Shown here in pieces: positions 7,320 through 46,662 of a DNA stretch of 64,000 nucleotides. The translations under genes and the position numbers were made by a program. The notes under the pieces were generated by a model. That model was not told the DNA's origin. It saw only the letters and a program-made list of their open reading frames with translations, and searched no databases. Numbering within the stretch: the first letter of the stretch is position 1; every line of letters starts with the position of its first letter. Origin of the DNA: Candidatus Saccharimonadales bacterium (GTDB lineage Bacteria > Patescibacteriota > Saccharimonadia > Saccharimonadales > JAXHNE01); contig JBFIJL010000001.1 of assembly GCA_041600755.1 (NCBI GenBank), positions 122,896 through 186,895 of the forward strand, written 5' to 3'.

Positions 7320-8795
7320 CTATTCAATAATATTTCTATCTGTAATTTTACCGTATTTTCGCTTTACTGCATAATGCAGCAAAATCGTAAACAAGCCCAA
7401 TAGTCCATAAACATATAACGTCGCGATAAATGAAATTTCACTTTTAAGTAGCGCTCCTGGAAAACGTGCAAACATCTGCACTACATCAAGCATATAGGTC
7501 AAAACAATCGTCGCTGGAAATCCGAAGATTCCCGACACTACTGGTGCGAACATGCCAAATACACCGGCAATTAGCGAGCCGAGCATCGCAAGCGGAACTA
7601 GCGGAACGATCAGTGCATTGCTCACTAGAGCAATCAGTGAAACTTCACCAAATATATACAAAATAAGCGGAGCGGCCATTAATTGCGCACAGACGCTCTC
7701 CAGCACAACCTGACCTATGAGCCTCTGTTCCCTGTCGCCATATAGGCGTTGTTTTACGAGTGGCGCAATCACCAACACCCCAAAGAAGGCCAAAAATGAC
7801 AAGTACCATCCTATGTCAGACCAGACATATACTGGATCCCAGTACGCAGTTAATGCAGCCGACAGCAATAGTAGCACCATCGGCTTAATGGCCCTGCCAT
7901 AATACCAAGCTAAAAGACTCAAGACACTTACTACTGCAGCGCGCACAATCGAAGCACTAAAGCCTGTAACAAAAATAAAAAGTGCAATCAATGCGAAAGA
8001 AAATGCGACTGATTGGTATTTTGAACGTTTTCCAAGCAGCCGTCGCATAATGCGCACAATAATGGTCAGATTATACCCAGAAACTGCAATAATATGCGTA
8101 AGGCCGGCAATTGACAATGCAGTGAGTATGCCACTTGGCAAGGTTGTTCGCTGGCCAATCAACAATCCTAGCCCAAAAGACGCCTGAGGTTCGGGAATTG
8201 CATTGAACATTCCGGCAACAAAACGACGACGGATATTCTCGAGCGTGCTGGTATCGGGTTGCAGCACTGTGATTGTGCCGTAACTAAACTTTGCCTGCTT
8301 CGATCCACCTGTTGGAAATAGCTTACCTTCTAGCTGCACAACATCACTGCGCGATACACTCAATGCGCCAAAACCTTGTACCCTAATCTGACCTGGAAGA
8401 GACTTCAACCCTTCTTCGGTTTGCACCTCTATGCTACCCGCATCAAAAGTTAGCTGACCGCTATCGCCGTATACTGCATCATTTAATGCAACTGCTTTTA
8501 TTAGGATTTGCTGACCATACAAATCACCGTACTGTGCGATCGACTCAAAATGTAGACTGCCACGATTCACTCCAATTACTACGCCAAAAATAACTACAGC
8601 AAGAAGACCTGTTAGACTGCGACGTGAAATTAAAACTAAGGCCGAAACGCCTGACAGTAAGATAGTAAAGCTATCGGTCTGGGTCTTTCTTCCAAGCAAC
8701 AGGCCAGCAAGTATCGCGGTACAAAACCATACAATATAAGTCGCACGATTAAACCTTCGATTCAAGCCAGAGCTCATGAGCATATTAAACACCAT
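7320..8795 (-). CDS. comEC: ComEC/Rec2 DNA internalisation channel, short form
   Basis: 491 aa polytopic protein with the competence-domain motif GLTHIIAVSGYNLTII. No HxHxDH metallo-beta-lactamase motif is visible. Confidence 0.85.
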   Translation of the reverse strand: MVFNMLMSSGLNRRFNRATYIVWFCTAILAGLLLGRKTQTDSFTILLSGVSALVLISRRSLTGLLAVVIFGVVIGVNRGSLHFESIAQYGDLYGQQILIKAVALNDAVYGDSGQLTFDAGSIEVQTEEGLKSLPGQIRVQGFGALSVSRSDVVQLEGKLFPTGGSKQAKFSYGTITVLQPDTSTLENIRRRFVAGMFNAIPEPQASFGLGLLIGQRTTLPSGILTALSIAGLTHIIAVSGYNLTIIVRIMRRLLGKRSKYQSVAFSFALIALFIFVTGFSASIVRAAVVSVLSLLAWYYGRAIKPMVLLLLSAALTAYWDPVYVWSDIGWYLSFLAFFGVLVIAPLVKQRLYGDREQRLIGQVVLESVCAQLMAAPLILYIFGEVSLIALVSNALIVPLVPLAMLGSLIAGVFGMFAPVVSGIFGFPATIVLTYMLDVVQMFARFPGALLKSEISFIATLYVYGLLGLFTILLHYAVKRKYGKITDRNIIE

Positions 8796-9144
8796 GAACT
8801 ATGTCAGAGACAATCTGATCTTGTAATGTCAGCTATGCTGTCGGAGCTGGAGGAGATGTCTGGTCGCTAGGCTCAGCAGCGACGACAGGGACAGTAGAAG
8901 CAGGTGCAGCATTATCAAATAATGAAACTGGAGCCGCAGTAGGTGATATGATTGGCGAATTTACTTGCGCTACGCTGAGTTTATTGAATCCAATCTGAAT
9001 GGGGCTTGACCTGTCTTCGGCCCGAAACTTCTACTTTGAAAGAAATATTTCGAATGAAGGTTTTCTTTCAAACTGCCACTGGCAGTTCTCCCCCACGACA
9101 TCCTTTTGGCGTGTCGCGGATTCAGGCACGAAACCTTATCAAAT

Positions 9145-9173
9145 AAAAAGACTCACCTCGGTGAGTCTTTTTA
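9145..9173 (-). terminator. Hairpin terminator after tRNA-Lys (A/T-flanked, potentially bidirectional)
   Basis: AAAAAGACTCACC-TCG-GGTGAGTCTTTTT. Confidence 0.6.
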
Positions 9174-9175
9174 TT

Positions 9176-9252
9176 TGGAGGGTCCGGTGGGACTTGAACC
9201 CACGACACCCTGCTTAAAAGGCAGGTGCTCTAACCAGCTGAGCTACGGACCC
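9176..9252 (-). tRNA. tRNA-Lys (anticodon UUU), CCA encoded
   Basis: The reverse complement folds as a cloverleaf: GGGTCCG/CGGACCC acceptor, CCTGC-CTTTTAA-GCAGG anticodon arm, GTGGG-TTCAAGT-CCCAC T-arm. Confidence 0.9.
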
Positions 9253-26097: not shown

Positions 26098-26982
26098 TTA
26101 TTTGCCAGGTGTTCTACTTGTAGTCAACACAACGGTTTTACCCTGACTTATTAGCTGCTTGTTGCCAGGTAGCGACATTCTTGATCCAACTGGTCCTGTT
26201 TTGCAAAATACGTAAGCATCCATTACAAGACGTTTTGAAATCTCAATTCCACCTCTCTGCAGCCAATGTGCAACAAACTCAAGACCAATAGACGCGTGCG
26301 TCGAGAGTAGTTCATGCCTGACTATTTCCTTGCTGTCTTTCATATGCTCAGCAACCATCTGGTCAATTTCATCATTTAATCCAAGCATAGAAACATAAAG
26401 ATCAAGCAATTTTTGCCTTAAAGTATCATCAAGATTGTTTACTATTCTATGGCGAACAAAATTACGTAGATATTTAGTGTCTAGATTCGTATTGTCTTCG
26501 TGCCAATCTAATTTATGAAGTCGAGCATAATCAGTTATTTCTGTTTTTGACTCCTCAAGCATTGGTCTCATGATGTCATTGGTGCTTTTCAGCGAACTTA
26601 AGCCCTTGCGATTTGTGCCTCGCAGCAGGTTCAGAATCATAGTTTCGATTACGTCGTCTTGATGATGTGCAGTGATGATTGCTGCTGCACTGTACTTCTC
26701 ACGTATTTTTTGTAGAAATTCATAACGCGCCTTGCGAGCCGTCGACTCACTTGCCTCATTTCCAAGCTTTAGCTGTGTTGACTCAAAACGGAGTCCGTAT
26801 TGTCTGGCTAAAGATTCTACAAATTTTGCATCGTCAGCAGATTCGGTGCGCATACCATGATCAACGTGCGCAACAATAAGCTCCAGCTCAGGAATCTGTA
26901 ACAGTTTGTGCAACAAAACTACAGAATCCACGCCTCCAGAAACCGCCACAACATAACAACCAGGTCTCATCTTCATATTCAT
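26098..26982 (-). CDS. tilS: tRNA(Ile)-lysidine synthase TilS
   Basis: PP-loop VAVSGGVDS. 294 aa, in the classic position next to ftsH. Confidence 0.85.
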   Translation of the reverse strand: MNMKMRPGCYVVAVSGGVDSVVLLHKLLQIPELELIVAHVDHGMRTESADDAKFVESLARQYGLRFESTQLKLGNEASESTARKARYEFLQKIREKYSAAAIITAHHQDDVIETMILNLLRGTNRKGLSSLKSTNDIMRPMLEESKTEITDYARLHKLDWHEDNTNLDTKYLRNFVRHRIVNNLDDTLRQKLLDLYVSMLGLNDEIDQMVAEHMKDSKEIVRHELLSTHASIGLEFVAHWLQRGGIEISKRLVMDAYVFCKTGPVGSRMSLPGNKQLISQGKTVVLTTSRTPGK

Positions 26983-26999
26983 ATGTATAATAATAGCCT

Positions 27000-27515
27000 A
27001 TGAAGAAGATATATTTTTGTAGACACGGTCTTAGCAAGATGAACGTCAGTGGGCATATAGCAGGAGTTACCGATACTCCACTGGTTGCTGAAGGTCGAAA
27101 ACAAGCAAAAAAAGCCGGCAAGAATGCAAAAAAGCTGTCGATTGACTGTATTGCCAGCTCGCCTTTATCTCGAGCCAAGGAAACTGCCGAGATAATCGCC
27201 AAGGAGATTGGCTACCCACTTGACCAAATTCATATCAACAAACTACTCCTAGAAAGAGATTTCGGTGATGCCGAAGGTCATGTCTACGCACCCGATCTGG
27301 ACCTTGATGGCTTTTCTGACATAGAAGCAGTAGATACTCTCATAGAACGTGCTCGCCTCACCCTTCGCTGGATAGAGACCCTGCCTGGTGAAACTGTTCT
27401 CATAGTCAGTCATGGCTCATTTGGCAGAGCACTGCAAAGCGCGCTAAATGATAAGGTTCAATTCCACACTGCTCCTCGTGTGCCCAATACAGAAATACTT
27501 CTCTGGCGCGACTAA
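27000..27515 (+). CDS. Histidine phosphatase family protein (phosphoglycerate mutase-like)
   Basis: RHG motif (FCRHGLS), SPLSRA and SHG. TATAAT 26986-26991 lies 8 nt upstream of the ATG. Confidence 0.8.
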   Translation: MKKIYFCRHGLSKMNVSGHIAGVTDTPLVAEGRKQAKKAGKNAKKLSIDCIASSPLSRAKETAEIIAKEIGYPLDQIHINKLLLERDFGDAEGHVYAPDLDLDGFSDIEAVDTLIERARLTLRWIETLPGETVLIVSHGSFGRALQSALNDKVQFHTAPRVPNTEILLWRD

Positions 27516-27725
27516 CTAACGCTCGTTGAACACCCTCAATGAGTCAAGTGCTACAAACGCCTTTGCTGCGGGTGTGTCGTTATTGCTTTGCACAATATCG
27601 TCACGTCCTTGACGATAAAATCCAATATCTTCAGCTGCCCTCAAAACCAACTGATCCATTTGCTCGGAGCTTAGTTCCGAATCATGCGACTCGCTAACAG
27701 TCATCTCGCCACTAATTACACTCAT
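27516..27725 (-). CDS. Hypothetical 69-aa acidic protein
   Basis: ATG 27725 is preceded by a strong AAGGAGGT SD. The longer track form (to 27860) lacks one. Confidence 0.5.
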   Translation of the reverse strand: MSVISGEMTVSESHDSELSSEQMDQLVLRAAEDIGFYRQGRDDIVQSNNDTPAAKAFVALDSLRVFNER

Positions 27726-27911
27726 ATAACCTCCTTTTCTGGGCAAAAAAATACGACCATCGCTGGTCGTCGCTACTTTTTTGGTTCCAGTATTTATTTT
27801 CATACTAGGTCTGTATTGTACTCCTTGTCTGCCCTGCTTTGCAAACAAGGCTGGCACCAAAGACTTCAGTGTGGTATATTCTACCTCTGTAGTTTACAAT
27901 CGTAGATGCAT

Positions 27912-27936
27912 GGCTGGATAGCTAAGTTGGAGCAGC
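27912..27936 (+). other. tRNA 5'-half look-alike fragment
   Basis: GGCTGGATAGCTAAGTTGGAGCAGC resembles the acceptor and D-arm of the tRNA at 28033. No matching 3' half or anticodon arm is present. Confidence 0.35.
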
Positions 27937-28032
27937 TTGCTGCAGAAATAGTAATCGCATAGGCGCACTACCCAACCTACTGGCCTGCAAATGACGATTA
28001 CAGTTCATTTACAGTTCAAAATTACAGAATAT

Positions 28033-28109
28033 GGCAGGATAGCTCAGTTGGTTAGAGCGCAGGACTCATAAGCCTGAGGTCCCGAGTTCAAATCTCGGTC
28101 CTGCTACCA
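28033..28109 (+). tRNA. tRNA with anticodon CAU (elongator Met or lysidine-modified Ile2), CCA encoded
   Basis: GGCAGGA/TCCTGCT acceptor, CAGGA-CTCATAA-GCCTG anticodon arm, CCGAG-TTCAAAT-CTCGG T-arm. Confidence 0.9.
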
Positions 28110-28258
28110 AATTTAATGCCCCACGTAAGTGGGGTTTTAAATTTGGTACTGGTCTGTTTTAAGGCGAGGGACCGAAAGGCGTAAAAAGCCTGAGGCTTAT
28201 TACGTTTTCCTTGCTTGGCCGAAAGAGAAATTTAATATTTCGATTGAGCACGCTTAGA

Positions 28259-28286
28259 CCGAGTTCAAATCTCGGTCCTGCTTCCA
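28259..28286 (+). repeat. Exact copy of the 3' part of tRNA 28033-28109 (T-arm + acceptor 3' strand) followed by TCCA
   Basis: CCGAGTTCAAATCTCGGTCCTGCT is identical to 28082-28105, 177 nt downstream of the original. Confidence 0.85.
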
Positions 28287-28322
28287 AGATAAAACCGTCC
28301 ATTTTGGGCGGTTTTATCTTGG
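28284..28322 (+). terminator. Long A/T-flanked hairpin fused to the CCA of the tRNA fragment
   Basis: CCAAGATAAAACCGTCC-ATTTT-GGGCGGTTTTATCTTGG (17-bp stem, one mismatch). Confidence 0.6.
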
Positions 28323-46586: not shown

Positions 46587-46662
46587 GGGGGCGTAGCTCA
46601 GGGGTTAGAGCAGTCGGCTCATAACTGATTGGTCGTAGGTTCAAATCCTACCGCCCCCACCA
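46587..46662 (+). tRNA. tRNA with anticodon CAU (elongator Met or Ile2), CCA encoded
   Basis: GGGGGCG/CGCCCCC acceptor, GTCGG-CTCATAA-CTGAT anticodon arm, GTAGG-TTCAAAT-CCTAC T-arm. Confidence 0.9.

Follow-up and report, generated by a model that had tools for sequence, protein, structure and literature searches.

The stretch of DNA analysed here (the window) comprises 64,000 nucleotides (nt) from Candidatus Saccharimonadales bacterium (assembly GCA_041600755.1, contig JBFIJL010000001.1, positions 122,896 to 186,895), in which ARAGORN places four transfer RNA (tRNA) genes. Three of the four are followed by trailers of one or two modules each: a tRNA-Lys(UUU) gene at 9176; a tRNA(CAU) gene at 28033, with one module; and an initiator-type tRNA(CAU) gene at 29272, with two in tandem (the fMet modules). 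The tRNA at 46587 has none. Typically, a core designated E, which folds into three hairpins (P-b, P-c and P-d), interrupts a partial copy of the T-arm of the very tRNA that the module follows, and a further piece copies that tRNA in antisense. The window modules are a local sample of a widespread, structured element of tRNA T-loops, apparently undescribed, for which we built R1, a covariance model of E (89 positions, three hairpins).

A first-pass annotation, made from the sequence alone, had drawn attention to 15 nt shared by the Lys and fMet trailers, and had proposed homologous modules of 150-190 nt at three tRNAs, with 3' ends tailored to each host. The 15-mer AACTGCCAGTGGCAG is exact at 9073-9087 on the minus strand and 29415-29429 on the plus strand, with no third place in the window (chance expectation 0.15), and both copies lie 3' of a tRNA, tRNA-Lys(UUU) or the initiator-type tRNA(CAU), and its terminator. 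Similarity extends past the 15-mer. The Lys trailer and fMet module 1 were left out of the building of R1, and the model matches the former at 9009-9093 on the minus strand (61 bits, E-value 5e-11) and the latter, weakly and over the 5' half only, at 29409-29472 on the plus strand (22 bits, E-value 0.04); fMet module 2, matched at 29591-29679 on the plus strand (86 bits, E-value 1e-16), is the one window sequence used in training. The modules are thus related and their ends match the host tRNA, with a reservation for the module at 28110: R1 gives no match to it, and it is tied to the family by its layout, a P-b-like hairpin and a type A motif only. It is probably of type A. The tailoring of 3' ends is evident at tRNA 28033 (29 of 30 nt) and in fMet module 1 (28 of 28 nt), the corresponding ends of fMet module 2 and the Lys module being degenerate. 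A TTGAG-N12-T-arm ending was found, as described, 3' of the tRNAs at 28033 and 29272, and the T-arm-like Lys ending GGTCAAGCCCC (9011-9001) does resemble the tRNA-Lys sequence GGTTCAAGTCCC. Overlooked in that reading of the Lys trailer were a sense copy of the variable loop and T-stem 5' strand (TGTCGTGGG, 9100-9092) and a second T-arm copy, this one in antisense (CCTGAATCCGCGACAC, 9126-9111). The features of the three trailers are as follows.

9176-9252, minus strand: intact tRNA-Lys(UUU), host of the Lys module (ARAGORN; Rfam tRNA, 73.9 bits)
9139-9175, minus strand: terminator-like hairpin AAUAAAAAGACUCACCGAGGUGAGUCUUUUUAUUUGA, abutting the CCA end of tRNA-Lys (read from the sequence)
9111-9126, minus strand: antisense arm CCUGAAUCCGCGACAC, the reverse complement of the tRNA-Lys T-loop, T-stem 5' strand and variable loop (sequence comparison)
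9101-9110, minus strand: loop GCCAAAAGGA; a YAAAAG loop is seen again in many modules
9092-9100, minus strand: left flank of E, UGUCGUGGG, a sense copy of the tRNA-Lys variable loop and T-stem 5' strand (identical 9-mer in the tRNA)
9009-9093, minus strand: Lys core E, type B, three hairpins (R1, 61.4 bits, E-value 5e-11; structure and covariation)
9000-9008, minus strand: right flank CAAGCCCCA, copied from the tRNA-Lys T-loop 3' half and T-stem 3' strand and since decayed (sequence comparison)
28110-28322, plus strand: module of tRNA(CAU) 28033-28109 (layout and type A motif GGCGAGGGACCGAAAGGCG)
28110-28145, plus strand: its terminator
28146-28258, plus strand: its body, with P-b-like hairpin CGUAAAAAGCC-UGA-GGCUUAUUACG
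28259-28288, plus strand: copy of the tRNA from T-arm through CCA, 29 of 30 nt
28289-28322, plus strand: second terminator
29272-29346, plus strand: intact initiator-type tRNA(CAU) (ARAGORN; Rfam)
29347-29523, plus strand: fMet module 1, type A, short-helix variant (R1, 22 bits, E-value 0.04)
29347-29383, plus strand: terminator of fMet module 1
29391-29404, plus strand: antisense T-loop copy GAGAGACUCGAACC, followed by GAUA at 29405-29408
29409-29495, plus strand: core of fMet module 1, with the P-b 15-mer at 29415-29429 and the hairpin CGAAAUGUG-UUUA-CGCAUUUG
29496-29523, plus strand: exact copy of the tRNA 3' end, 28 of 28 nt
29518-29696, plus strand: fMet module 2, type B (R1, 86 bits, E-value 1e-16; training sequence)
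29518-29554, plus strand: terminator of fMet module 2
29570-29592, plus strand: hairpin CUCUGAC-GCUAAAAG-GUCAGAG, whose 3' strand copies the variable loop and T-stem 5' strand
29591-29679, plus strand: core E of fMet module 2, with P-b GCGAAAUGCC-GGA-GGCAUUUCGC
29680-29696, plus strand: decayed tRNA 3' end GAGCCCCUCGCUACCA

In the Lys core, P-b is AACUGCC-AGU-GGCAGUU (9087-9071), with the 15-mer inside it; P-c is the 11-base-pair stem of the first-pass annotation, TTTGAAAGAAA (9072-9062) with TTTCTTTCAAA (9045-9035), present as claimed; and P-d is degenerate. The acceptor strand and CCA are gone from the right flank of this module, and its antisense arm can pair with the sequences at either side of E. 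The hairpin at 9139-9175 was absent from the list returned by a consensus terminator scan.

Fold and strand of the core

E is a core of about 90 nt (about 85-130 nt) that begins with (U/C/G)GARAAC and ends with GUGAC or GURGG. In P-b, the first of its hairpins, the 15-mer supplies the AGU loop and the upper part of the stem. The fold was derived from an alignment of 64 distinct copies, in which 27 of the 33 base pairs show compensatory changes. Standard pairs occupy 95.7% of cells, as against 26-41% when partners are slid; changes on both sides of a pair number 337 cells, as against 25-35; and none of 500 shuffles matched the observed pairing values. P-b alone occurs as AACUGCC/GGCAGUU, AAUAUGCC/GGCAUAUU, AAGUUC/GAACUU, AAAUGCC/GGCAUUU, AUCCCGCC/GGCGGGAU and GAGCU/AGCUC, paired in every case, and its covariation holds in copies that lie outside the selection made by the search pattern. 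Pairs of the G.U kind (about 118) far outnumber A.C mismatches (about 21), and a near-invariant G.U stands at columns 84:94; this excess assigns the fold to the tRNA-sense strand, as opposed to a duplex. P-b (CUGCC-AGU-GGCAG) and P-d (GGUCGCG-GAA-CGUGACC) are unrelated in sequence.

The suggestion of a conserved tRNA-linked RNA family is borne out insofar as the modules belong to a conserved, structured family linked to tRNAs. Rfam 15 offers no family for the module regions, even at E-values up to 10 (chance-level matches only), and recognizes tRNA and transfer-messenger RNA (tmRNA) alone; nor was a convincing match to hammerhead, hairpin-ribozyme or group I/II signatures seen when these were sought by eye in the module. 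The element family of Saccharibacteria is apparently undescribed so far, no description of it having been found in the literature. Only work on group I introns of Patescibacteria came to light, which is unrelated: those introns lie in the anticodon loop of tRNAs and are distinct from E (PMC13011429).

Besides type B, other cores occur. Type A has P-b in common and then diverges; it was seen at 12 metagenome loci and in fMet module 1. A further core type (containing CGAAAAAGUGUUUACAUUUUUUCGUGA and GGAGGAGC), with the same antisense-arm layout, is inserted after UUCG of the T-loop (L182:2069-2260, L287:734-900, L191:362-520 and L115:2241-2420, L numbers designating loci of the comparison sets described below). 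The 3' hairpin CGAAAUGUGUUUACGCAUUUGAGUGAGAA of fMet module 1 resembles this UUCG-site core, which gives the cores a modular or chimeric look. At L144:3888-4063, L164:5554-5722 and L156:7698-7776, short inserts of other kinds separate a tRNA from an exact repeat of its 3' end; among them are a "type C" body (GCGTGAACTCAGA-hairpin-TTCGGGT) and a 59-nt insert.

Module architecture and insertion sites

Read in the sense of the host tRNA, type 1 modules run from the intact tRNA through a terminator hairpin, an AT-rich spacer of 9-15 nt, the antisense arm (a copy of the local T-arm that takes in some of the T-stem 3' strand, the T-loop, the T-stem 5' strand and the variable loop), a loop that is often YAAAAG, a sense copy of the variable loop and T-stem 5' strand, E, and the T-loop 3' half onward to NCCA, closing with a second terminator. 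A short variant has the loop and left flank reduced to GAUA-GG. Type 2 mirrors this order, with the interrupted copy 5' of the intact tRNA, which a new putative promoter would drive. Comparison of the partial copies with the adjacent intact tRNAs places the E junction at GG/TT/C, between U54 and U55 of the T-loop. E is inserted 3' of GGU and without exception reads in the same sense as the host RNA gene. Most often it occupies a T-loop, of a tRNA or tmRNA, and less commonly a D-loop, an anticodon loop, a different hairpin or the P-d of another E.

Across 61 non-redundant modules, the median alignment between the antisense arm and the local tRNA complement spans 21 nt and has 3 mismatches, and the mismatches concentrate opposite G53, at the junction. 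Its substitutions are mainly C>U and A>G and keep the pairing with the module's own flanks. Pairing of the arm with both flanks of E would, as judged from sequence, give a three-way junction. Hairpins consisting of an "empty" antisense arm were sought and none was found, some core standing after every arm. Exact 20-nt repeats of the tRNA 3' end lie 59-190 nt downstream at 7 related loci and at 2 window tRNAs, and the acceptor 3' strand is kept in 34 of 70 type 1 modules from metagenomes.

Copies in related genomes and metagenomes

Two collections were used for comparison: 80 ftsH loci of other Saccharibacteria species, found via FtsH, and a metagenome scan with the 25-nt motif GGNGARAACTGCCAGTGGCAGYTYG, which returned at least 120 contigs, with 124 copies among the matches listed. 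In the former the spread is patchy. R1 finds E in 6 of the 80 related loci, besides the window, and an exact downstream copy of the 3' end adjoins 7 of the 72 tRNA(CAU) genes that neighbour ftsH. The module at the initiator tRNA is common to the window and L119 (FtsH 75% identical), with P-b compensated; the modules farther 3', and those at the second tRNA(CAU), differ between the two. Decay is seen as truncated E copies in L200, L262 and L264 and as a remnant in L119 that consists of P-d only. In L152, the final 18 nt of the tRNA(CAU) at 8965-9041 recur, exact and inverted, at 7583-7600, 1.4 kilobases (kb) upstream on the opposite strand.

Among the 124 metagenome copies, 83 split a partial tRNA copy that has an intact tRNA gene at its side. 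Type 1 accounts for 70, lying 9-100 nt 3' of an intact tRNA on the same strand and covering at least 25 anticodons, and type 2 for 13, in which the whole 5' part of a tRNA, E, a short T-arm/complement hairpin and a promoter-like AGTTTACAAT box precede the intact tRNA. The remaining 41 are of other kinds or were left unclassified by the script; by eye they include second units of arrays, opening with just the last 9-11 nt of the tRNA and a terminator. Also by eye, E was placed in D-loops (L186, L193, L212, L268) and in anticodon loops (L208, L247, L270). It sits in otherwise complete tRNA-like genes in L231 and L262 only, and in hairpins without an Rfam match in three pairs of loci (L249 and L257, L215 and L277, L185 and L209); one such hairpin, GAGCCTACAGAGGGGGTGGGCACCGCTGTAGGCTC, adjoins an intact copy of itself. 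Two tmRNA genes carry a type A module directly 3', together with a repeat of the tmRNA 3' end, GTACCCGGCAGCTCCACCA (L274:4100-4499, L285:7859-8400). The 15-mer is thus frequent, yet nearly always in a context derived from tRNA or tmRNA, and does not behave as a generic repeat at unrelated sites.

In L182:4244-4430 and L219:314-490, a second core follows GGGU in the P-d of the first, with neither duplication nor antisense arm. These nested, duplication-free copies argue that E is a discrete unit with ends of its own. Copies within one locus are always on the same strand, and occur as tandem pairs, on both sides of a tRNA, or spaced by 0.6-2 kb of cargo. In the arrays L200:11164-12725 and L299:523-2239, modules that each open with only GGCCCTCCA and a terminator alternate with small cassettes (GNAT acetyltransferases, a SnoaL-like protein, a 117-amino-acid protein); on these two related contigs the flanking modules are common and the cassette content is different. 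Cassettes with open reading frames (ORFs) lie between modules in L200, L299, L226 and L223, and most modules, those of the window included, are ORF-free. An ORF with helix-turn-helix domains only (HTH_38/HTH_7; L200:10675-11172, minus strand) abuts one array. An autonomous copy with an ORF in a variable middle was considered and rejected, the long copies being either nested (L182, L219) or a truncated E with unrelated genes (L200, L299).

No protein gene is linked to the copies. A census of neighbouring genes, extending 3 kb from each of the 124 copies, found no recurrent integrase, transposase or reverse transcriptase; the largest cluster of neighbouring proteins comprises 6 loci, of unannotated ORFs with no recombinase-like features by eye. 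No integrase was found next to the window modules. No Y1 transposase gene was found near the 124 copies, the rest of the genome not having been searched for one. Of viral sequences, IMG/VR (2.9 million contigs) gave 96 matches to the 15-mer, all without similarity in their flanks and hence attributable to chance, and none to the longer motifs.

Of the genes around the window modules, a comEC-like gene (7320-8795, minus strand) is separated from the Lys module by about 200 ORF-free nt (8796-8999). The tRNA(CAU) at 28033, which is probably tRNA-Ile2 rather than tRNA-Met, adjoins a tilS-like gene (PF01171) within 26098-28109, a pairing seen again in related loci. A 210-amino-acid ORF between two modules (28345-28977) has no Pfam domain, and a peptide scan of 185,579 GTDB species genomes found no relative of it; it may be island cargo. 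Logan contigs of SRR29257383 end within the module-bearing tRNA-Lys (9233) and initiator tRNA (29290-29317), which fits repeat-induced breaks in assembly.

Origin and mode of spread

We consider it fairly probable, and well short of assured, that these trailers are a family of small, non-autonomous, site-specific insertion elements with a single-stranded sense intermediate. The intermediate is suggested by the strict sense orientation, by hairpins that covary in a strand-specific manner, and by arm substitutions that preserve pairing. In such a scheme E would be mobile at present, or would have been so formerly, without being autonomous. Its target would be GGU at the 5' edge of hairpin loops in stable-RNA genes, chiefly the T-loop, and its active form may be single-stranded, folded and of sense polarity, whether as RNA or as sense-strand DNA. 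The arm would serve as a guide or splint holding both halves of the T-arm, and the enzyme would be encoded elsewhere in the genome; a recombinase or nuclease with folded single strands as its substrate seems to us slightly likelier than self-catalysis by RNA. These small genomes appear to have few redundant tRNA genes, and copies might persist in them only where a partial duplication spares an intact tRNA. The non-coding PATEs of the IS200/IS605 family, with other single-strand DNA elements that depend on hairpins, offer a partial parallel, being likewise small and provided with hairpins near both ends; E similarly inserts 3' of a short fixed sequence (GGU) in one orientation, and its nested copies lack a target duplication. 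Unlike in PATEs, P-b and P-d are dissimilar and lie at distances from the ends that do not suit such an element, no Y1 transposase turned up near the copies, and the usual copies come with an antisense arm and lengthy partial target duplications.

Several considerations weigh against insertion as the full account. Mobility is inferred from distribution alone; no transposition intermediate, no pair of empty and filled alleles within a species and no enzyme was seen. The metagenome sample was picked by one exact 25-mer, which over-represents one lineage of E, and its contigs were taken without taxonomic assignment. Simple insertion leaves unexplained both the sense and antisense copies of the local T-arm at each tRNA and the alternation of a conserved scaffold (the YAAAAG/GAUA loop and E) with tRNA-matched pieces. 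Origins in a single event (staggered cut, snap-back, hairpin opening, template switch) were tried, and none yields arm, loop and sense flank together. GC skew does not separate an orientation that follows transcription from one that follows replication. Finally, the compensation of P-b between the window and L119 suits a module long retained by vertical descent under selection, and points to an RNA function at the level of the host more than to pure selfishness.

Such a function is the substance of the main rival, by which the modules are a family of host-functional small RNAs, each an RNA gene tailored to its neighbouring tRNA, for example as mimic, decoy, splint or regulator. Selection or gene conversion would keep the arm and the tRNA-like 3' end matched, and the spread would be due to duplication instead of transposition. 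The strong structural selection on the sense strand only, the invariable co-orientation with the tRNA, the terminators on both sides, the pairing kept by arm substitutions, the orthologous module retained with compensated stems in the window and L119, the alternation of scaffold and tRNA-matched pieces, and the existence of several core types within one architecture all favour it. We nevertheless judge it unlikely: orthologous tRNAs of related species are mostly without a module, copies decay (the 3' ends of the Lys module and fMet module 2, the truncated E copies and the P-d remnant described above), armless E occurs in D-loops, anticodon loops, complete tRNA copies and another E, and type 1 modules lack a clear promoter. 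The sense and antisense T-arm copies that alternate with a conserved loop and core are also the most guide-like feature of the modules, and a base-pair-guided system could be imagined in which the arm pairs with the T-arm halves and sets E at U54/U55 without a protein encoded by the element, or in which the module is an attC-like cassette site anchored at a tRNA. E could then insert and excise as RNA or folded single-stranded DNA, in a bridge-RNA-like or ribozyme-like manner specialized for tRNA loops. A conserved scaffold alternating with sense and antisense target-matching segments is indeed shared with the bridge RNA of IS110 and with the exon- and intron-binding sequences (EBS/IBS) of group II introns; unlike those systems, the modules have no adjacent recombinase (no DEDD-type ORF) or reverse transcriptase. 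The antisense segment, moreover, is one contiguous stretch of about 21 nt outside the inserted core, and its use in trans finds no support here. The modules resemble integron attC sites (and the folded single-stranded attP of CTX phage) in being defined more by structure than by sequence and in folding strand-specifically. The likeness is partial in the arm-loop-arm layout, where the arm pairs with both flanks and the junction opens the right flank, at the edge of the last box, and in the small promoter-proximal ORF cassettes that alternate with modules in L200 and L299. They differ from attC in that no IntI-type integrase, attI or Pc was found in the loci, in the junction (GGU/UC or GGT/TC(R)A as against G/TTRRRY), in arms that are copies of the tRNA T-arm, in a 90-nt three-hairpin core that splits the sense arm, and in modules that are mostly ORF-free. 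A guided system of either kind strikes us as rather improbable.

The first-pass annotation had also raised the possibility of remnant attP arms with protein-binding palindromes, and the modules might accordingly be remnants of integrase-mediated integration, whether collapsed attL/attR pairs or mini-elements mobilisable in cis, that tRNA-targeting integrative elements or prophages have left behind, with E as the attP arm. The T-loop is the classic crossover region of tRNA-targeting integration. Integrative elements that target tRNA and tmRNA genes, and their integrase-less derivatives, likewise insert in the 3' part of the gene with a junction in the T-loop, produce direct repeats of the tRNA 3' end (those of the modules open within the T-loop), leave the tRNA intact, and accumulate in tandem arrays with accessory cargo between the repeats; the targeting of tmRNA, and the terminator that every unit supplies for the tRNA, are also in keeping with this. 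The palindrome, however, proved to be a hairpin stem whose pairing is maintained by compensatory changes, and the excess of G.U over A.C marks a strand-specific structure unlike the conserved duplex sites bound by proteins at attP arms. The modules, of about 190 nt, have no recurrent integrase within 3 kb, and their longer motifs are missing from viral contigs. Each of the three pieces that match a tRNA, the antisense one included, is a copy of the tRNA nearby, and the repeat at times runs through the local terminator; an attP brought in from elsewhere would do neither. The upstream mirror form and the plain, repeat-free insertions in tRNA copies and in another core set the modules apart from integrative elements, and a near-identical core at 25 or more different tRNAs would call for equally many switches of att specificity; we therefore hold this origin to be quite improbable. 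An intron of tRNAs, spliced by itself or by a protein, with most copies now fossils in tRNA pseudogene fragments, would account for the exclusive sense orientation, for the sites in tRNA loops, and for the copies in L231 and L262, in otherwise complete tRNA genes that retain the acceptor 3' strand and CCA. Bacteria are not known to possess the archaeal splicing endonuclease. The great majority of copies lie in partial tRNAs that would give no tRNA even if spliced, the T-arm of L231 is degenerate, and E also occurs after tmRNA and in hairpins other than those of tRNAs. E (89 nt, three hairpins) has no group I/II core and matches no Rfam intron. Patescibacteria are rich in tRNA introns (PMC13011429). 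Mobile tRNA introns (those of Thermoproteales with bulge-helix-bulge motifs at non-canonical sites, and the group I introns of Patescibacteria) are similarly short, related sense inserts in many tRNAs at several positions, including the T- and D-loops; unlike them, E has neither a bulge-helix-bulge motif nor a group I core and is mostly found in fragments. An intron, on this evidence, deserves very little credence.

Repeated non-coding DNA is unexpected in the tiny genomes of Saccharibacteria and other Patescibacteria, yet it follows three of the four tRNAs of the window. An element of 90 nt, conserved in fold, strictly sense in orientation and matched to its locality, adds to the known mobile and structured elements associated with tRNAs. 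E modules would account for breaks in assembly at these tRNAs and for interrupted tRNA copies that escape tRNA finders, and they mark sites at which accessory genes build up. If the arm guides insertion, the modules would constitute a very compact, naturally retargeted system of site-specific insertion; if they are instead RNAs with a function for the host, they would rank among the most abundant unknown RNA families of the phylum. If they act as attC-like sites, tRNA genes would be the anchors of small gene-cassette arrays in Saccharibacteria.

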